Of a stretch of DNA of 64,000 nucleotides, positions 5,280 through 49,253 are shown one piece after another. The position numbers were made by a program, and so were the translations under genes. Source of the stretch: Acidobacteriota bacterium (GTDB lineage: Bacteria; Acidobacteriota; Vicinamibacteria; Marinacidobacterales; Marinacidobacteraceae); assembly GCA_009840635.1 (NCBI GenBank), contig VXNL01000079.1, positions 3,782 to 67,781 of the forward strand, given 5' to 3'. The notes beneath the pieces are model-generated. The model had not been told where the DNA came from. It did not search any database and saw only the letters and a program-made list of their open reading frames with translations. Every line of letters begins with the position of its first letter. Within the stretch, counting starts at the first letter, position 1.

Positions 5280-5391
5280 GACGGAGGGGCTAACGAACCG
5301 GGCGTCCAGAATGTTCCGTGCTGTCGAGAGGCCGAACGCTTCCCGTATCCTCCGGGGCTCTTCCCAGAGGCTCCTGATTCCGGAGGTTCCG

Positions 5392-6594
5392 ATGAAACAA
5401 GCCCACCGCATCCCGGCGTTCCTCGCCGCCTGCCTGCTCGCCGCCCCGTTCGCCCTCGGGCAGGGCGACTCCCGGCCCCGGGCCCGGGACATCGGTCTGT
5501 CGCCGGGAGTTCTGGACCCCGGACCGCACAACGCCATCACCGACGTCCCCGGCGTCCTCGTCGGGCAGGTCACCCTGATGGAGGGAAACCACATCCGCAC
5601 CGGGGTCACCGCGATCCTGCCTCACGCCGGGAACATCTTTCAGGAGAAAGTTCCGGGCGCCGTCCATATCGGGAATGCCTTCGGCAAGCTGGCGGGGTCC
5701 ACCCAGGTCGTGGAACTCGGGACCATCGAGACTCCGGTCGTGCTCACCAACACCCTGTCGGTCTGGGACGCGGCGCGCGCGGTGGTGACCTACACCCTCG
5801 GCCTTCCCGGCAACGACGACGTGCGGTCCGTGAACCCGCTCGTCGGCGAAACCAACGACGGGTTCCTCAACAACATCCGGGGACTCCACGTGAAGGAAAG
5901 CCACGTGCTGGAGGCGATCCGCACCGCGTCCGCGGGACCGGTGGCGGAGGGCGCGGTGGGAGCCGGAACCGGAACGTCCGCCTTCGGCTGGAAGGGAGGG
6001 ATCGGCACCTCCTCGCGGCGACTTCCCGAGAGTCTCGGCGGCTACACGGTCGGAGCGCTCATCCAGAGCAACTACGGCGGAGTCCTCGTCATGGACGGAA
6101 TCCCGGTCGGCGAGGAACTCGACCGCTACTACCTGCGAGACCAGTTGCGCGGCGGCGCGGGCGCGGCGGGCGACGACTCCCTGGACAACCCGGACGGGTC
6201 CATCATGATGGTGGTGGCCACCGATGCCCCGATGCGCTCGCTCGGCCTCACGCGGCTGGCGCGCCGGGTCATGCTCGGTCTCGCCCGCACCGGGGCCACC
6301 TCATCCCACGGGAGCGGCGACTTCGTCATCGCCTTCTCCTCGGCGGAGTCGCTCCGCACCGGATTCCGGAGTGACTCTCCGGTGGACTCCGGCGCCGTGC
6401 TCCGGGGCGACCGGCTGTCGCCGCTCTTCCAGGCGGCGATCGAGGCTACCGAGGAGGCGGTCTACAACTCGATGCTCAAGGCAACCACGGTCGTCGGCAA
6501 GAACGGGAACACCCGGGAGGCGATCTCGATCGAGGATCTGCTGGAGATCGGAGCGAAGTACAACCGCCTCCACCCGCCGGGCGGCAGCCGCTGA
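5392..6594 (+). CDS. Peptidase S58 (DmpA/L-aminopeptidase family), secreted
   Basis: An RBS GGAGG lies 6 nt upstream of ATG 5392. It has a signal peptide and the NAITDVPGV...GHIRTGVTAIL motif of the DmpA/ArgJ-like fold. Confidence 0.8.
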   Translation: MKQAHRIPAFLAACLLAAPFALGQGDSRPRARDIGLSPGVLDPGPHNAITDVPGVLVGQVTLMEGNHIRTGVTAILPHAGNIFQEKVPGAVHIGNAFGKLAGSTQVVELGTIETPVVLTNTLSVWDAARAVVTYTLGLPGNDDVRSVNPLVGETNDGFLNNIRGLHVKESHVLEAIRTASAGPVAEGAVGAGTGTSAFGWKGGIGTSSRRLPESLGGYTVGALIQSNYGGVLVMDGIPVGEELDRYYLRDQLRGGAGAAGDDSLDNPDGSIMMVVATDAPMRSLGLTRLARRVMLGLARTGATSSHGSGDFVIAFSSAESLRTGFRSDSPVDSGAVLRGDRLSPLFQAAIEATEEAVYNSMLKATTVVGKNGNTREAISIEDLLEIGAKYNRLHPPGGSR

Positions 6595-7955
6595 TGCTCT
6601 ACCGGTCCCTGAATCCGGCCACCGAGGAGGTGGTGGCCGAGTTCCCGACGGCGACCGACCGCGAGGTGGACGCCGCCCTCGACCGCGCCGACGCCGCGTT
6701 CCGCCTCTGGCGCCGGTCCCCGTTCGCCGAGCGATGCGCGGTGAACGAACGCCTGGCCGATCTTCTCGAGGCGCAGGCGGACGAGCTGGCCGCCCTCATG
6801 GCGCTCGAGATGGGAAAGCCGCTCGCGCAGGGAGTGGCCGAAGCGCAGAAGTGCGCGTGGGTCGCGAGGCACTACGCGGAGACCGCGGAGGAGTCGCTCC
6901 GGCCGCGCCGCTACCCCTCCGACGGCAGCGACGCCTACGTGCGCTACGACCCCATCGGGCCGATCTTGGCGGTCATGCCCTGGAACTTCCCCCTGTGGCA
7001 GGTCATCCGGGTCTCCGCGCCCAACTTTATCTCCGGAAACGCCATGGTGCTGAAGCACGCGCCGTCGGTGCCCCAGTGCGCACTCCGGATCGTCGAGCTC
7101 TACCGGGAGGCGGGAGCTCCGGAGGGGCTCGTCCAGAACCTCTTCCTGACGAACGCGCAGGCGGCTTCCTGCATCGCCGACCGGCGGATCCGGGGCGTCA
7201 CATTGACCGGCAGTTCCCGCGCCGGCAGCGAGGTGGCCGCGGTCGCGGGCCGCCACCTCAAGCCGATGGTCGCCGAGCTCGGGGGCAGCGATCCCTTCAT
7301 CGTGTTCGAGGACTGTGACGTGGAGGAGGCGGCCGTCGCGGGCGCGGGGGCGCGGCTCATCAACTCGGGCCAGAGCTGCATCGCCGCCAAACGCTTCCTC
7401 GTGCAGCGAGCCGTGCTGGACTCGTTTCTGTCGGTCTTCGAGGCGCAGTTCCAGAAAACGGGGGTCGGCGATCCGCTGGCGCCGGAGACCACGGTCGGCC
7501 CGCTGGCCCGGGAAGACCTCCGGGACCGCCTCGAGGAGCAGGTTGCGCGGTCGGTCCGCGCCGGCACGGACCTCATCTACCGGGGAACCGCGCCGGAACG
7601 CGGGTTCTTCTCCGCGACCGGGATCCTGGCGGCGCCGCCGGCGGGAGCGCCGGCCGCCGAGGAGGAACTCTTCGGGCCGGTCGCGACGGTGATCCCGTTC
7701 GCGGACGAAATGGAGGCGGTGGAGATCGCCAACCGGACGAACTACGGACTCGGATCGTCGCTCTGGACCTCCGCTCCGCCGCGGGCGGAACGGCTCGTGG
7801 CGCAGATCGAATCGGGGGCCGTCTTCGTGAACGGCATCACCAAGTCGGATCCCCGGGTGCCCTTCGGCGGGACCAAGGACAGCGGGTTCGGCCGCGAGCT
7901 GGGCCCGGACGGCCTCATCGAGTTCACCAACCGGAAGACCGTCTGGATCCGCTGA
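6594..7955 (+). CDS. NAD(P)-dependent aldehyde dehydrogenase (succinate-semialdehyde dehydrogenase-like)
   Basis: The start overlaps the upstream stop as ATGA. ALDH motifs are present: VMPWNFP, GSSRAGSEV, ELGGSDP and the catalytic Cys in GQSCIAAKR. Confidence 0.9.
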   Translation: MLYRSLNPATEEVVAEFPTATDREVDAALDRADAAFRLWRRSPFAERCAVNERLADLLEAQADELAALMALEMGKPLAQGVAEAQKCAWVARHYAETAEESLRPRRYPSDGSDAYVRYDPIGPILAVMPWNFPLWQVIRVSAPNFISGNAMVLKHAPSVPQCALRIVELYREAGAPEGLVQNLFLTNAQAASCIADRRIRGVTLTGSSRAGSEVAAVAGRHLKPMVAELGGSDPFIVFEDCDVEEAAVAGAGARLINSGQSCIAAKRFLVQRAVLDSFLSVFEAQFQKTGVGDPLAPETTVGPLAREDLRDRLEEQVARSVRAGTDLIYRGTAPERGFFSATGILAAPPAGAPAAEEELFGPVATVIPFADEMEAVEIANRTNYGLGSSLWTSAPPRAERLVAQIESGAVFVNGITKSDPRVPFGGTKDSGFGRELGPDGLIEFTNRKTVWIR

Positions 7956-26070: not shown

Positions 26071-26117
26071 GGCTTGGAACGCCGGCTTCAGCCGGCACAG
26101 CCCGCCGAAGGCGGGCG
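26071..26117 (+). repeat. REP-like element, family 1 (GGCTTGGAACGCCGGCTTCAGCCGGCACAGC plus CCGCCGAAGGCGGG hairpin)
   Basis: This is the left arm of an inverted doublet with the copy at 26190-26235. Confidence 0.8.
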
Positions 26118-26189: not shown

Positions 26190-26235
26190 GCGGCCCTGCG
26201 GGCCGCTGTGCCGGCTGAAGCCGGCGTTCCAAGCC
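26190..26235 (-). repeat. REP-like element, family 1, inverse copy (GGCCCTGCGGGCC hairpin plus GTGCCGGCTGAAGCCGGCGTTCCAAGCC)
   Basis: It is the reverse complement of the unit at 39854-39900. The right arm of the doublet lies about 70 bp from the left arm. Confidence 0.8.
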
Positions 26236-37713: not shown

Positions 37714-38352
37714 GTGAGACCCGAAACCGCCAGCGCGGAGGCACCCGGGCCGGCCGTGGACCGCGAACGGCTCGCGTCGGCGGTCGAGGCGCTGCTCTTT
37801 TCCCACGGGGCGCCGGTCACGGGCGAACGCCTCGCCGAAGTGCTCGAGACCGGCCTGAAGGAGGTGCTCGCCGCCCTCGACGAGCTGGAGGTGCGGTATG
37901 CGGCCCTGGAGTCCGGGCTGCGGCTGGCCCGGATCGCGGGAGGCTTCCAGCTCACCACCCGGGCGGAATGGAAGGGCGCGATCGAGCGTCTCATCGCGCC
38001 GAAGCGGGAGCAGGCGCTGACCGAGGCGGCCCTCGAGGCGCTGTCCGTCATCGCCTACCGGCAGCCGATCACCTTGCCGGAGCTGAACGAGATCCGCGGG
38101 GTGAACTCCCACAGCGTGGTCACCACCCTCATGAAACACCGCCTGGTCCGCTCCCGGGGGCGCAAGCAGGTCGTCGGACGGCCGCTCCTCTACGGGACCA
38201 CGAAGGATTTCCTCGAGCGATTCGAGCTCGACCGGCTGGAGGACCTGCCGAAGCTCGGCGAATTCGAAGAGGCGCTGGCGTCGGCCGCGCCCGTTCCGAT
38301 GGAATCCGAAGTCGGGGAGCCTGGCGCCGATCCCGCCGAGGTCTCCGAATGA
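37714..38352 (+). CDS. scpB: Segregation and condensation protein B
   Basis: Winged-helix ScpB motifs are present (LEALSVIAYRQPITLPELNEIRGV). Confidence 0.8.
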   Translation: MRPETASAEAPGPAVDRERLASAVEALLFSHGAPVTGERLAEVLETGLKEVLAALDELEVRYAALESGLRLARIAGGFQLTTRAEWKGAIERLIAPKREQALTEAALEALSVIAYRQPITLPELNEIRGVNSHSVVTTLMKHRLVRSRGRKQVVGRPLLYGTTKDFLERFELDRLEDLPKLGEFEEALASAAPVPMESEVGEPGADPAEVSE

Positions 38353-39812
38353 CCGCCGAGCGGCTCCAGAAACTGATCGCGGCTGCCGGGATCGCCTCGC
38401 GGCGCGCCGCGGAACGGATGATCGCCGAGGGCCGGGTCACCGTGGACGGGGAGGTGGTCGGCGTTCCCGGGGTGCGCGCGGACCCGGCGCTCCAGGACAT
38501 CCGGGTGGACGGAGCCCGGCTCCGCAAGCTCGGCAAGCCCCGGCGCTACGTGATTCTCAACAAGCCCATCGGCCACCTGACGACCCGCTCGGACCCGGGA
38601 CGCCGTTCCACGGTGATGGATCTGCTGCCCCATTCGTTCCGCTCGCTGGTTCCGGTCGGGCGGCTCGACGGCAACAGCTCGGGACTCGTGCTGCTCACCG
38701 ACGACGGGGAGCTGGCGCAGCGGGTCACGCATCCGCGGTACCGGCTGCCGAAGACCTACTACGCCACCGTCCGGGGGCTTCCCGCCGAAGACGTGCTCGA
38801 GCGGGCGCAGCGCGGCGTCCGCGTCGATGGCGAGGGGCTGCGGCTCGACCAGGTCGAGGTCATCGCCCGTTTCCCGCACCGGGCGGAGTCGAAGCGCCGC
38901 GCGCGTCTCCGGGTCACCCTGCGGGGCGGGCGGAACCGGGAGATCCGGCGGGTGCTGAGCGTCCTGGGCCATCCGGTCCTCGAGCTGCACCGGACCCGGA
39001 TCGGCTCTCTCGCCGACACCGGGCTCACCCCCGGGGGCTGGCGCAAGCTGCGCGGCGACGAGGTGGACGAGTTGCGGGAGTTGATCCGGCGGTGCGCGGG
39101 CGAGCCGGCGGCGCCCGCCGAACCGGCTGATTCGGAACCGGCAGTTCCTGCCGCCCGGCCCGCGGCCGCGGCATTCGTGGTGGCGATCGACGGGCCGGCG
39201 GGGTCCGGCAAGACGTCCGTGGCGCGCGCGGTCGCCGAACGTTTCGAACTCGGTTACTTCAACACCGGGGCGTCGGTGCGCGCGGTGGCGCTCGCGGCGA
39301 TGCGGCAGGACATGGATCTCGACGAAGGCCCGTCCCTCAGGACCCTCGCCTTCCGGGTGATCCTCGATCCGGAAGGCCGCGTCTTCCTCGACGGCGAAGA
39401 TGTCTCCCAGGCCGTCCGCGCGCCCGAGGTCTCCGCCGGCGCCTCCCGCGTCGCCGTCCACCCCGAGCTGCGCGAGGTCCTGGTGGAGCGTTGGCGGCAG
39501 TTCGCGGCGGGCGGCGGCGTGGTCGAGGGCCGGGACATCGGCACTGTGGTCTTCCCCGAGGCGCCGGTGAAGGTCTTTCTGGACGCGCGGCCGGAGATCC
39601 GGGCCCGGCGCCGCTCCTCGGACGAGGGAGACCGCGACGTGGGCGCCGTCCAGTCCGAACTCCGCCACCGTGACCACACCGACTCCGGCCGGGCGGTGGC
39701 TCCCCTCCGCCGGGCGGAGGACGCCCACCATCTCGACACCAGCGACCTCACGCTCGAGGAAACGGTGGAGCGGGTGGCGGAACTGGTGGAAACGGCGCGA
39801 TCTCAAGCCTGA
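38349..39812 (+). CDS. In-frame fusion: S4-domain RluB/RsuA-type pseudouridine synthase plus cytidylate kinase
   Basis: The N-terminal half carries an S4 domain and a pseudouridine synthase catalytic region (VGRLDGNSSGLVLLTDDG). A Pro/Ala linker follows. The C-terminal half carries the Cmk P-loop (AIDGPAGSGKTSVARAVAERF). A single 487-aa ORF has no internal stop. Confidence 0.75.
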   Translation: MTAERLQKLIAAAGIASRRAAERMIAEGRVTVDGEVVGVPGVRADPALQDIRVDGARLRKLGKPRRYVILNKPIGHLTTRSDPGRRSTVMDLLPHSFRSLVPVGRLDGNSSGLVLLTDDGELAQRVTHPRYRLPKTYYATVRGLPAEDVLERAQRGVRVDGEGLRLDQVEVIARFPHRAESKRRARLRVTLRGGRNREIRRVLSVLGHPVLELHRTRIGSLADTGLTPGGWRKLRGDEVDELRELIRRCAGEPAAPAEPADSEPAVPAARPAAAAFVVAIDGPAGSGKTSVARAVAERFELGYFNTGASVRAVALAAMRQDMDLDEGPSLRTLAFRVILDPEGRVFLDGEDVSQAVRAPEVSAGASRVAVHPELREVLVERWRQFAAGGGVVEGRDIGTVVFPEAPVKVFLDARPEIRARRRSSDEGDRDVGAVQSELRHRDHTDSGRAVAPLRRAEDAHHLDTSDLTLEETVERVAELVETARSQA

Positions 39813-39816
39813 CGCT

Positions 39817-39900
39817 CCGAGCGCCGGCCTCTACTGCGCCGGGAGGCGCCGCCGGCTTGGAACGCCGGCTTCAGCCGGCACAGCGGCCCGCAGGGCCGCG
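39817..39900 (+). repeat. Composite REP: degenerate family-2 element (GAGCGCCGGCCTC...) followed by a family-1 unit (GGCTTGGAACGCCGGCTTCAGCCGGCACAGC plus GGCCCGCAGGGCC)
   Basis: It starts 5 nt after the rluB-cmk stop. It forms the left boundary of the low-GC island. Confidence 0.75.
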
Positions 39901-40094: not shown

Positions 40095-40637
40095 TCAAAA
40101 GGCATCCGCTTCGGGCAACCGCAGAATGCTCCAATTCTCCCGATAGGCGTCAAGCCAGCCCGATCGATACCGATCAAGCGTCTTCCTTCCTTTCTCCGTG
40201 ATCGGCTTGATGTTCGAGTAGTCGGGTAACAGCCGACGCACGTCGCTGTCCTTGTGTGGCTGACCTGCTTTGCCGGGAGTGTCGAGCCACACTTGGTGGC
40301 AGTCGCGAATACAGGCCGCCACCACGCTGGAGGGAAGGACGTAGCAAACCGTCGTATCGGACGGCTGTTTGCCGACGTCGACTAAGACGTAGAACAGATC
40401 GTCGGCGACCATGGTCGCGTGCCTAGCCCTCATGTGCCAGCCCTTGTCGCCTCCGATGCCACGTCGCGTCTTTACTTGGATGGCACACAACTTCTTGGAG
40501 TTCTTGTCGGTGACCAGGATGTCCATGTTCGGTGCCCCATCCGGTGCGAGGGCCGCAATCCAGCCACGCCGCAACAACTGACTGAGCACGTGATACTCGC
40601 CGGCGGCGCCGACGATAGTCGAACTGATCTTGTGCAT
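40095..40637 (-). CDS. Mrr-cat / PD-(D/E)xK-like (Hjc-like) nuclease-fold protein
   Basis: GAAGEYHV (E), NMDILV (D) and CAIQVK (QxK) are spaced as in Mrr/Hjc catalytic cores. It lies in a lower-GC patch. The ATG at 40635 is preferred. The track ORF extends to 40700. Confidence 0.55.
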   Translation of the reverse strand: MHKISSTIVGAAGEYHVLSQLLRRGWIAALAPDGAPNMDILVTDKNSKKLCAIQVKTRRGIGGDKGWHMRARHATMVADDLFYVLVDVGKQPSDTTVCYVLPSSVVAACIRDCHQVWLDTPGKAGQPHKDSDVRRLLPDYSNIKPITEKGRKTLDRYRSGWLDAYRENWSILRLPEADAF

Positions 40638-40748
40638 CGGGTCAGAGCGGTCCTTCAGGCGGAGGTTCAACGGTACGGGGTTCTGACGCCAGTGAGGCAC
40701 AGAACAGGACGTCCACCCCGAGCGTGGCGCGCCTCCCGAGGCTTTGAA

Positions 40749-41303
40749 TCAGGACGAACGCCTCGATGCGGGCCCGAAGAGACTCCCCGGGGCCGCTTTC
40801 TGCGCATCGGCGCCGTTGCTGTCGAGAACGAAACGCGCCCGCTCGGCACGTAGCATGGCAAAGGGCGTCACGCATTTGACGCCGAGACCGATGCATACGT
40901 TGGGGATCTTGATTCTCCTTGGTGTATCGGCGGGCACCTCGTGCGTTACGACCGCGTGTCCCCCGGTCAGGGCCTGACCGACCAAGTAGTAGTCGGCGGC
41001 CTGCAGGAACGAGTTGATCGCCGCCGGGTCGTACGACTGCTCCCTTACCCATTCGCTTACTCGTTCCAATGACGGCAAGTCGGCTGCCTGAGGCAGGACG
41101 AAGAACTCCGGACCTCGCTGCTTGGCCCACTCCCGAAGTTCGTCGTCCGAGGCACCGATTTCGTCGCCCACTTTGTCGATACTGCGCACCAGCCCGCGGG
41201 CGTGGCCGACCACGATCCAATCCCAGAAGCCAGGACAGAAGTCGAAACCGTAGTGAAGGTTCTTCGCAGCGATCAGGACATTGGCGTCCAGGAGGTAGGC
41301 CAT
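40749..41303 (-). CDS. DUF4411 PIN-like domain protein (putative toxin/effector)
   Basis: The N-terminal MAYLLDANVLIAAKN is a PIN motif, followed by GFWDW. Downstream acidic residues lie in ADYYLVGQAL...VVTHE, then KIPNVC. The start overlaps the upstream gene stop (TGATG). Confidence 0.6.
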   Translation of the reverse strand: MAYLLDANVLIAAKNLHYGFDFCPGFWDWIVVGHARGLVRSIDKVGDEIGASDDELREWAKQRGPEFFVLPQAADLPSLERVSEWVREQSYDPAAINSFLQAADYYLVGQALTGGHAVVTHEVPADTPRRIKIPNVCIGLGVKCVTPFAMLRAERARFVLDSNGADAQKAAPGSLFGPASRRSS

Positions 41304-42451
41304 CAGGAAGTCAGGCCCAGGCGGCGGCTCAGTTCGTTGAAGGTCGCCATCTTGCGGAACCCGAGAAGGCGGAAGGCCTCCGTGTAGGACGAGCGGCCTT
41401 CCAGGGTGGCCCCGACGACGGCCCGGGCGAACTGCTTGCTGACCCGGGCGCCGATGCTCCTGTAGAAGTCGCCGCCGGAGTCACGGGCCACGGCGCGGAG
41501 CCTGTCGAGTTCTTCGTCGTAGGCGTTCCAGTACTCCTGCCGGGTGAGGGCGCCGAGTTCGTGGAGACGTCGTAGCACCACCAGCGTGCTCACCTTGAAG
41601 TGGCGGGCGAGTCGCGTGGCCTCTGCCGGAAGTGGCGCGCTGGGGCGATACTCCGCTCGCACCAGCCGGATCGGGGCCAGGATTTCCGCCGCCACCTGGT
41701 TGCAGAAGCGCTCCGTCTCGTGATCGGGGATGACGCGGTCCTGACTGTCGGAGAGCGCCGTTTCTCCAAGCCAGACATGAGCCAACTCGTGGGCTAGCGT
41801 GAACATCTGGGCCGACTTCGAGTCCGCTCCGTTCACGAAGATGACCGGCGCGAGATCGTCCACCAGAGCAAAACCGCGGAACTCCCGGAAGTCCAGCCGG
41901 CGGCGCGTGTTGCTCCCGACCACGCCGCTGACCATGACGAGCACCCCGAGGCTGTTGGCCTGTTCAACGAAGAGCCGCAGTGCCGCGGTCCACGTTGCGA
42001 GGCGGCGCCGTTCTTCGAGGTCGAACCGGAGCGCGGCGCGGATCCGATCGGCCACTCCCTCGACATCGTCCGAACGGCTCACCGAGCCGACAAAGTCCAG
42101 CGGCGCTTCTCCGTCCGTACGGGCGTTGTCGCGGTACCACGCCTGCCGTTGCTGGCAGAGGTAGATCGTGTCCAGCAGGTCGGCGCTGGGCCGGGCGACA
42201 GGTTTGTCAGCGATGGTGCGGAAGTCCGGGATGGGAAGGCGCTCCTCCGGCGGTTCGGGGAGGAAGAAGAAACCGATCGGGGTGCGCGAAGCCTTGGCAA
42301 AGCGTTCCAACTGTCTGAGCGTCGGGTTCTCCGCGCCGCGTGCCCAGGCCGGGAACGCCGGAAAACGCTGCGCCAGGGTCTCGGGCTCAAGGCGGCCGCG
42401 TTCGCACGCCCAGCGGAGTACACCGGCGTGGACGGGTATGCGCACAGTCAT
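41303..42451 (-). CDS. HTH (XRE-like) domain fused to an ImmA/IrrE-family (M78, COG2856) zinc metallopeptidase
   Basis: It carries the HEXXH motif HELAHVWLGE. The N-terminal helix-turn-helix region spans PTLRQLERFAKASRTPIGFF. Length is 382 aa. Confidence 0.75.
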   Translation of the reverse strand: MTVRIPVHAGVLRWACERGRLEPETLAQRFPAFPAWARGAENPTLRQLERFAKASRTPIGFFFLPEPPEERLPIPDFRTIADKPVARPSADLLDTIYLCQQRQAWYRDNARTDGEAPLDFVGSVSRSDDVEGVADRIRAALRFDLEERRRLATWTAALRLFVEQANSLGVLVMVSGVVGSNTRRRLDFREFRGFALVDDLAPVIFVNGADSKSAQMFTLAHELAHVWLGETALSDSQDRVIPDHETERFCNQVAAEILAPIRLVRAEYRPSAPLPAEATRLARHFKVSTLVVLRRLHELGALTRQEYWNAYDEELDRLRAVARDSGGDFYRSIGARVSKQFARAVVGATLEGRSSYTEAFRLLGFRKMATFNELSRRLGLTS

Positions 42452-42642: not shown

Positions 42643-42692
42643 GTTTCGCCCGCCTTCGGCGGGCTGTGCCGGCTGAAGCCGGCGTTCCAAGC
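42643..42692 (-). repeat. REP-like element, family 1, inverse orientation (CCGCCTTCGGCGGG hairpin plus GTGCCGGCTGAAGCCGGCGTTCCAAGC)
   Basis: It is the reverse complement of the 26071 unit. It forms the right boundary of the low-GC island. Confidence 0.8.
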
Positions 42693-49136: not shown

Positions 49137-49253
49137 GCGGTGCCGGCTGAAGCCGGCGTTCCAAGCCAGGGGTGCGCTCTGGGCGCGCGTCAGGTTGGGA
49201 CGTGCGCGGCGCGGAGCGCCGCTGTGCCGGTCTGGAGACCGGCGTTCCAAGCC
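49137..49253 (-). repeat. Two direct REP-like family-1 copies: 49137-49167 (loop CTGAAG) and 49204-49253 (GCGGCGC-GGA-GCGCCGC hairpin plus loop TCTGGAGA), in the divergent LysE/fadD spacer
   Basis: Both end in CCGGCGTTCCAAGCC. The second copy has the same subtype architecture as the copy at 7976-8026. Confidence 0.75.

Follow-up and report, generated by a model that had tools for sequence, protein, structure and literature searches.

I-Ssp6803I (PDB 2ost) is a homing endonuclease of the PD-(D/E)xK type encoded in the group I intron of Synechocystis tRNA-fMet. Enzymes of the I-Ssp6803I type are tetramers and recognise a target of about 23 bp. Mrr, a Type IV restriction enzyme, has no cognate methyltransferase gene, as is also the case for the nuclease gene described here. 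The relatives of I-Ssp6803I are described as mostly cyanobacterial (PMC3384342), whereas the hosts of the nuclease family described below belong to many phyla. In NhoI and Eco15I of the BisI family, the 'PD' aspartate and the glutamine of the QVK/QIK motif chelate the metal, the helix-1 glutamate contributes, and mutating any of these active-site residues abolishes cleavage (PMC11347163). The tetramer of the SPARDA nuclease DREN mirrors that of I-Ssp6803I and binds DNA non-specifically (bioRxiv 10.1101/2025.04.08.647717). Here we describe a gene on the minus strand of a 64,000-nucleotide stretch of Acidobacteria DNA (the window), and find that it belongs, as an autonomous gene, to a large PD-(D/E)xK family that has no name. 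The initial annotation of this DNA, which had read the gene as a nuclease, was thus right in kind.

The window contains a minus-strand open reading frame at 40095-40700, for which two in-frame ATG starts (40700 and 40635) had been proposed. The codon at 40700-40698 is in fact GTG, and the only ATG spans 40637-40635, with 40635 as its last base. The shorter of the two products is the favoured one. More than 100 homologs (most of the best 120) have the same 180-aa length and the same start Met, and where homologs have longer gene calls, their N-terminal extensions are mutually unrelated. At locus L001 the conserved ATG is preceded by a stop one codon upstream, and at several other loci a stop comes 3-10 codons before it. 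When the 201-aa version was modelled with AlphaFold, its residues 1-23 had pLDDT values below 50, as expected of a disordered extension, and the remainder was unchanged. Taken together, the conserved Met and the unconserved, predicted disordered extension favour ATG 40637 as the translation start. The coding sequence of the nuclease therefore occupies 40095-40637 on the minus strand (180 aa plus a TGA stop), and the in-frame extension up to the GTG (40638-40700, minus strand) is probably untranslated.

Most of this upstream stretch appears to be a non-coding leader (40638-40690, minus strand) that travels together with the nuclease gene, as indicated by its nucleotide similarity to copies in other phyla. 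Within the upstream stretch, the copy at locus L006 differs from the window by a 1-nt indel, which indicates that the upstream DNA is conserved as non-coding sequence. The leader contains a GAAGGA box 13 nt upstream of ATG 40637 and also a TTGGCG-like box. Scanning for sigma-70 promoters gave no site close to the nuclease gene, and the conserved leader is the one feature that would point to a promoter there.

An AlphaFold2 model of the 180-aa protein, built with a 34-sequence alignment, had a pLDDT of 89.5 and a pTM of 0.85. In this model the nuclease core, residues 1-119 (40281-40637, minus strand), consists of a helix (6-23), four strands (27-30, 40-43, 50-58 and 67-70), a short helix (71-74), two further strands (81-87 and 97-102) and a closing helix (103-119). 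The candidate catalytic residues, all encoded on the minus strand, are arranged in the canonical PD-(D/E)xK layout: Glu14 (40596-40598) is the acidic residue of helix 1, Asp39 (40521-40523), the 'PD' aspartate, lies where strand 2 begins, and Gln54-Val55-Lys56 (40470-40478), a QxK variant of (D/E)xK, lies on strand 3. The same QVK is catalytic in NhoI (PMC11347163). The peptides from which an E...D...QxK core had been proposed, GAAGEYHV, APDGAPNMDILV and KKLCAIQVKTRR, are indeed present and supply E14, D39 and Q54-V55-K56, with D39 in the context NMDILV and Q54-V55-K56 in IQVKT; the proposed spacing of 25 and 15 aa holds in the 180-aa numbering. Because the literal 'PD' aspartate, Asp33, varies, we assign D39 as the catalytic Asp.

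Conservation was counted over 268 aligned homologs, and E14, D39, Q54 and K56 were each retained in at least 96% of them. Among close homologs, E14 was kept in 115 of 116, D39 in 120 of 120, Q54 in 119 of 120 and K56 in 120 of 120; among distant homologs the corresponding counts were 120/124, 140/144, 138/144 and 144/144. To judge from this conservation, the E14/D39/QxK pattern is more than a chance motif. Other near-invariant positions are W67, K72-H73-E74, W117, R134, W161 and W169.

The initial annotation had named a structure lacking the alpha-beta-beta-beta-alpha-beta core as grounds for rejecting a nuclease. The AlphaFold2 model shows this core, and the nuclease assignment therefore stands. 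Foldseek placed 2ost, SPARDA DREN, Hjc, EcoRV and PvuII at the top of its matches, and in the model the enzymes that appear structurally nearest are I-Ssp6803I and those of the BisI type. The protein is thus predicted to be an endonuclease of the PD-(D/E)xK (restriction-enzyme) fold.

A separate C-terminal domain of about 90 aa had also been described. In the model the core reaches to about residue 119, which leaves a family-specific extension of only about 60 residues (120-180; 40098-40280, minus strand) that is mostly helical and contains the invariant R134, W161 and W169. The pTM of 0.85 suggests that the modelled protein is one compact body rather than two domains. The extension may serve in oligomerisation or DNA contact.

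The window allele departs from the family at codon 74 (40416-40418, minus strand), which is GCG (Ala) in the window and GAG in the three other copies that were read. Glu occupies position 74 in nearly all homologs (119/120 close and 141/147 distant), and its conservation equals that of the catalytic residues. In the model, residue 74 lies in the short helix after strand 3. Some PD-(D/E)xK enzymes, of the Cfr10I and NgoMIV types, have a relocated acidic catalytic residue at that position. Relative to locus L005, the window has three clustered non-synonymous changes, P71A, K72R and E74A. Since the near-invariant Glu74 is missing, the window allele may be inactive, and this Ala74 copy may be weakened or heading to decay.

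The protein is a member of a large bacterial family that has no name in any curated library. A database search recovered homologs that formed 382 clusters at 90% identity, and in an exhaustive HMM search of representatives clustered at 50% identity, 2,306 reached E<=1e-3 and 858 of these also passed E<=1e-10. Pairwise dN/dS values between the window gene and 13 homologs were 0.04-0.27, which indicates that the family is under purifying selection. The RefSeq and GenBank copies are labelled 'hypothetical protein', and in PHROGs the core-only phage relatives fall in families of unknown function (phrog_29029, E 3e-10). A Pfam scan of the protein returned zero families at E<=1. The NCBIfam scan gave only a sub-threshold match to PRK14689 (17 bits against a cutoff of 122), which we take to be a model of UPF0102/YraN-type nucleases. 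Ten divergent or longer family members had no Pfam domain either, so that no informative fusions were found. When PDB sequences were searched with the single sequence and with two profiles, nothing significant was recovered, the best match being the Hjc protein ST1444 at E=1.2. The membership in the Mrr_cat/Hjc family that had been assigned to the protein is therefore not upheld, and at the level of sequence the protein does not appear to have demonstrable membership in the Mrr_cat, Hjc, BisI or I-Ssp6803I families.

The protein resembles I-Ssp6803I in being a small single-domain protein (about 150-180 aa) with a PD-(D/E)xK core. Unlike I-Ssp6803I, it has the additional C-terminal extension of about 60 aa with its invariant Arg and two Trp residues, and it has no sequence match to that enzyme, the PDB profile search not returning 2ost at E<=10. 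Its gene is free-standing and found in varied contexts; Rfam finds no intron in the window, and the neighbours of the gene at about 40 loci are unrelated to one another, unlike those of a homing endonuclease of this type. With the BisI family (NhoI, 8q5n; Eco15I N-terminal domain, 8q5m) the protein shares small size, the NhoI chain having 155 residues, and with NhoI also the Q-V-K variant of (D/E)xK and the helix-1 Glu. On the other hand, there is no detectable sequence similarity to the BisI family, and the C-terminal extension is different.

The E...D...(E/Q)xK layout and its spacing are also found in archaeal and viral Hjc proteins, and in the weak profile alignment to ST1444 (E=1.2) the E, D and (E/Q)xK residues are in register. 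However, no significant Pfam (Hjc models included) or NCBIfam match was obtained, Gln replaces Glu in the xK motif, and the protein is 40-60 residues longer than Hjc. The nuclease gene is bacterial, patchy and mobile, whereas Hjc is a conserved housekeeping gene. With the Mrr-type Type IV enzymes the protein has the QxK catalytic variant in common. Unlike Mrr, it gave no Mrr_cat or Mrr_cat_2 match at E<=1 in a search that readily found Mrr_cat_2 in Type ISP neighbours elsewhere, and it has no N-terminal DNA-binding domain, the nuclease helix beginning at residue 6. No separate modification-reading domain (SRA, EVE or winged helix) was found in the protein; a modification-dependent mode of action would need a pocket within the core, as in the BisI family, whose nuclease core has pockets for 5-methylcytosine.

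The genomic contexts of other copies were compared at about 40 loci, of which 31 came from species-representative genomes and further ones from metagenome assemblies; about 30 were checked by tblastn and the rest through called genes or annotation. An all-against-all clustering of the ORFs around 32 loci recovered no conserved partner gene, but only alternative frames of the nuclease gene itself and sporadic ABC-ATPase and Type ISP enzymes. In a census of 131 ORFs within 3 kb at 28 genome loci, the commonest Pfam families were N6_Mtase (4), Eco57I (3) and Phage_integrase (3), followed by transposase, C5 DNA methylase, HsdM_N, ThsB_TIR, MmeI_Mtase, Schlafen/AlbA_2 and Fic with two each. The recurrent flanking families are thus those of defence and mobility, and none is frequent enough to be a partner. 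With its own short leader and no conserved partner, the nuclease gene is autonomous.

Individual loci illustrate this variety. The copy at L038 lies among SIR2_2, AbiEii and ThsB_TIR genes, and the copy at L041 is directly upstream of a type I-E cas3. L042 has Abi_2, three tyrosine recombinases and a group II intron reverse transcriptase, and L040 a large serine recombinase and a GIY-YIG gene. An AAA_15/21 ATPase and a Type ISP restriction enzyme accompany the copies at L001, L008, L017 and L028. At L006 a tmRNA gene, itself beside an integrase-like ORF, lies within 5 kb, and at L005 an integrase is directly downstream. Plasmids gave five matches, annotated as hypothetical or unannotated, and plasmid accessory regions are among the contexts of the gene. 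The copies at L002 and L043 are among ordinary metabolic genes. Defence or mobile-element surroundings (L038, L041, L042, L040, the Type ISP loci and L006) count for a defence role of the gene, and the position of the L002 and L043 copies between metabolic genes counts against it.

We propose, with moderate confidence, that the gene encodes a solitary restriction-type defence nuclease. A scan with PADLOC v2.0.0 matched no defence model, and its best match was to the C-terminus of TmtA (E 0.0055, 12.5 bits); the case for a defence role is therefore one of guilt by association. With a pI of 9.2 the protein is basic, which fits DNA binding. As a restriction-type nuclease, it would bind double-stranded DNA as a homo-oligomer, by analogy either a dimer like NhoI and PvuII or a tetramer like I-Ssp6803I. 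For cleavage, D39, Q54 and E14, and possibly E74 as well, would hold one or two Mg2+ ions, and K56 would activate water. Since no cognate methyltransferase accompanies the gene, sparing of the host DNA would need either recognition of a modified base (Type IV/BisI-like) or a long, rare site.

The hosts of the family include Acidobacteria, Gamma- and Alphaproteobacteria, Opitutales, Syntrophales and candidate-phyla bacteria and, judged from MAG names alone, appear to be largely marine and sponge-associated; many of the source MAGs appear to be assembled to chromosome level. Sponge symbionts have been reported to exchange restriction-modification and CRISPR-associated genes laterally (PMC8163846). 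The window shares 79-88% nucleotide identity with copies from a second Acidobacteria MAG and from Gamma- and Alphaproteobacteria, and the similarity is limited to the ORF, about 40-45 nt upstream of it and about 8-30 nt past the stop. At the borders of this cassette the similarity fades, and no terminal repeats, defined ends or common target site were found. The GC content of the gene (59%, against 70-73% in the flanks) and the ORF-confined similarity across phyla point to a foreign origin, and with dS values of 0.3-0.9 to some copies, there has been recent transfer between phyla. Protein identity across phyla is 65-94%. Such identity is unusual for fast-evolving restriction enzymes, counts against a defence role and could mean a more constrained one. 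At six of the 31 genome loci (L023, L027, L028, L033, L034 and L035) the copy has decayed through a frameshift, a truncation, a nonsense interruption or an internal deletion. At L032 an ORF-less group II intron, lying on the same strand, interrupts the copy, and one genome has both an intact copy and a fragment (L017 and L034).

A tentative and rather unlikely extension of these observations is that the family is an unrecognised single-gene immunity or selfish element, in which an I-Ssp6803I-like endonuclease has left the intron niche and spreads among unrelated bacteria as a cassette of about 600 nt made of leader and ORF. Such an element would protect its host or propagate itself by recognising a long or modified site without a methyltransferase.

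In a strictly selfish form, which we consider improbable, the gene would encode a free-standing homing-type endonuclease that, as I-Ssp6803I does, cuts a long, specific site, here in genomes lacking the gene, and the gene would be copied in during repair. This would explain the spread of the gene and a cycle of invasion and decay, and the minimal transferred unit, the recent transfer between phyla, the six decayed and one intron-split loci, the genome with an intact copy and a fragment, and the structural match to I-Ssp6803I all agree with it. However, the flanks differ wholly among loci, leaving neither a shared target gene nor homologous arms, and the gene is in neither an intron nor an intein. 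Comparison with the 'empty' site at L047 shows no precise insertion, but about 750 nt exchanged raggedly for about 150 nt. Furthermore, a scan of 2.9 million viral contigs gave no copy, and a phage collection gave only one weak match, in an accessory region of a Burkholderia phage.

A different type of defence protein is suggested by the SPARDA DREN chains, which Foldseek ranks directly after 2ost and which use an I-Ssp6803I-like PD-(D/E)xK domain in defence. The protein could then be a latent toxic effector, a non-specific DNase that stays inactive until oligomerisation or another trigger and then kills or arrests the infected cell, much as the DREN domain cuts DNA only after a tetramer has formed. 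The resemblance between the DREN and I-Ssp6803I tetramers (bioRxiv 10.1101/2025.04.08.647717) and the defence-island contexts of the gene would suit such an effector, and the conserved Trp-rich C-terminal extension could be its regulatory or assembly module. On the other hand, in SPARDA, a short Argonaute defence system, DREN is fused to APAZ and needs an Argonaute partner and filament assembly, whereas the protein here is solitary. No conserved sensor domain or partner gene was found, the sequence gives no sign of a trigger, and a constitutive 20-kDa non-specific DNase without an inhibitor would be lethal. We therefore regard a latent effector as a doubtful explanation, with a low probability.

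It is still less likely that the protein is a structure-specific nuclease of branched DNA, that is, an Hjc- or RecU-like resolvase or a repair nickase serving mobile elements or host repair. The in-register alignment to ST1444 and the PRK14689 match, weak as both are, lean in this direction, and the high sequence conservation is as would be expected of a constrained, housekeeping-like activity. A core repair function, however, does not fit a gene that is patchy, varies in presence between sister genomes, is frequently a pseudogene and has a foreign GC content. Moreover, the best structural matches are enzymes that recognise sequences in duplex DNA, and no resolvase family model was matched in Pfam or NCBIfam.

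Upstream of the nuclease gene, on the same minus strand, is a toxin-antitoxin-like two-gene operon (40749-42451) that encodes an ImmA/IrrE metallopeptidase (41303-42451) and a DUF4411 protein (40749-41303), the operon being indicated by their TGATG stop/start overlap. In PADLOC the ImmA/IrrE protein matches models of RmrA, presumably the RosmerTA antitoxin. The nuclease gene had been described as the last gene of an island and possibly its DNA-targeting effector. Its position is as described: it lies 111 nt downstream of the DUF4411 gene in the same orientation, the three-gene block has a lower GC content than its flanks, and the same three genes occur together in L005, an Acidobacteria MAG whose nuclease copy is 93% identical to that of the window. 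A functional tie to the island is not borne out. The ImmA and DUF4411 genes are translationally coupled, whereas the nuclease gene has its own conserved leader, and its GC content (about 59%) is different from that of the ImmA gene (roughly 62-68%). Among the approximately 40 other loci, only L005 has these neighbours. Between the window and L005, DUF4411 is 63% identical and both flanking genes are 93% identical, which indicates a mosaic assembly.

A query with the ImmA gene showed that sister genomes share the site proS-acyltransferase-ImmA at about 92% nucleotide identity. In L047 the ImmA-DUF4411 pair is present and the nuclease gene is absent, with about 750 nt of the window (40745-39996) replaced by about 150 unrelated nt. 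In L045 and L046 a deletion of 1.1 kb (window 41295 to 40181) has taken out DUF4411 together with codons 1-152 of the nuclease gene, of which the last 28 codons are intact. The nuclease gene has thus been gained, lost and eroded independently of the ImmA-DUF4411 pair. That it is the effector of a three-gene island is accordingly so improbable that it can be set aside, and the other suggestion of the initial annotation, an independent restriction-like gene, is the best fit. A REP-like repeat lies downstream of the nuclease gene (39855-39894, no strand assigned) at the end of synteny with the sister genomes, and has an inverted partner at 42653-42692. These 40-nt inverted repeats were considered as ends of the island and rejected, as they belong to a genome-wide REP-like element with five copies in the 64 kb.

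For a large unannotated family that has no Pfam, NCBIfam or PADLOC model and comprises, at 50% identity, more than 2,300 clusters, the present analysis provides an anatomy: its fold, five residues that are candidates for catalysis, which start is the true one, and the status of the gene as autonomous. Small nucleases of the PD-(D/E)xK fold that work without partners have become reagents, such as the methylation-dependent cutters of the BisI family and I-Ssp6803I with its long site, and have given pointers to how bacteria discriminate self from foreign DNA; the family is an inexpensive candidate for screens of phage defence and specificity. For the annotation of the window, the nuclease gene is separated from the ImmA-DUF4411 module, and its allele is possibly impaired. 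If the homing-like version were true, the family would represent a free-standing homing endonuclease of bacterial chromosomes that is not bound to one target gene. The near-identity of copies across phyla provides a concrete example of the exchange of a defence-type gene within a microbial community.

When the window nuclease was compared with its closest homolog, three non-synonymous single-base changes (P71A, K72R and E74A) were found within four codons (codons 71-74; window 40416-40424, minus strand), and a family-invariant Glu is lost through these changes. Some other copies of the nuclease gene are damaged or interrupted. In two sister Acidobacteria MAGs (L045 and L046), a 1.1-kb deletion (window 40181-41295) joins the end of the ImmA gene to the nuclease gene's final 28 codons (6149-6240 in L045 and L046), and these remaining codons have 100% protein identity. 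In the homolog from a Rhodobacterales MAG (L032), an ORF-less group II intron lies on the coding strand after residue ~99 (5313-6194, with Rfam RF02003 at 5313-5456 and RF00029 at 6051-6194).

In two other loci (L008 and L017), the nuclease homolog has a Type ISP restriction-modification enzyme beside it; these enzymes are 1,385-1,644 aa long. Both scanned enzymes have the domains Mrr_cat_2, ResIII and N6_Mtase, and the L008 enzyme also has an ISP coupler and a C-terminal specificity domain. Related large ORFs are located near the nuclease homolog in L001 and L028.

In the window, the ImmA/IrrE metallopeptidase (382 aa), which matched the PADLOC models RmrA and capP, is encoded with DUF4411 as a gene pair (40749-42451, minus strand), and the DUF4411 gene is translationally coupled to the ImmA/IrrE gene via TGATG. 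The two genes resemble a toxin-antitoxin or defence pair of the RosmerTA type. Between sister genomes, the DUF4411 gene has 63-67% identity, far below the 92-94% of ImmA, which indicates that the toxin-like partner is swapped or fast-evolving.

On the plus strand of the window, one long ORF (37968-39812) appears to combine two parts, the first resembling a pseudouridine synthase (with an RluB-type S4 domain) and the second a cytidylate kinase (with a GPAGSGKT motif). This arrangement may reflect a gene fusion or a stop-free high-GC artefact.

A tmRNA gene is a classic island integration site. In L006, a tmRNA gene (1-175) is less than 5 kb from the nuclease copy and is adjoined by an integrase-like ORF region (183-1070) related to the integrase of L005, an Acidobacteria MAG in which ImmA and DUF4411 neighbour the nuclease gene as in the window.

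The REP-like repeat GGAACGCCGGCTTCAGCCGGCACAGC, which contains the hairpin GCCGGC-TTCA-GCCGGC, has five copies in the 64 kb (26076-26101, 26205-26230, 39855-39894, 42653-42692 and 49137-49162), and two copies, inverted to each other, flank the block of the ImmA/IrrE, DUF4411 and nuclease genes. Sister-genome synteny ends just beyond the copy at ~39853-39883. After the nuclease gene, beyond this break, the window carries cmk, L005 a P4-type tyrosine integrase (5893-7203), and L045 and L047 DUF418. Because synteny breaks just past one copy, the REP-like repeat may be a recombination hotspot.
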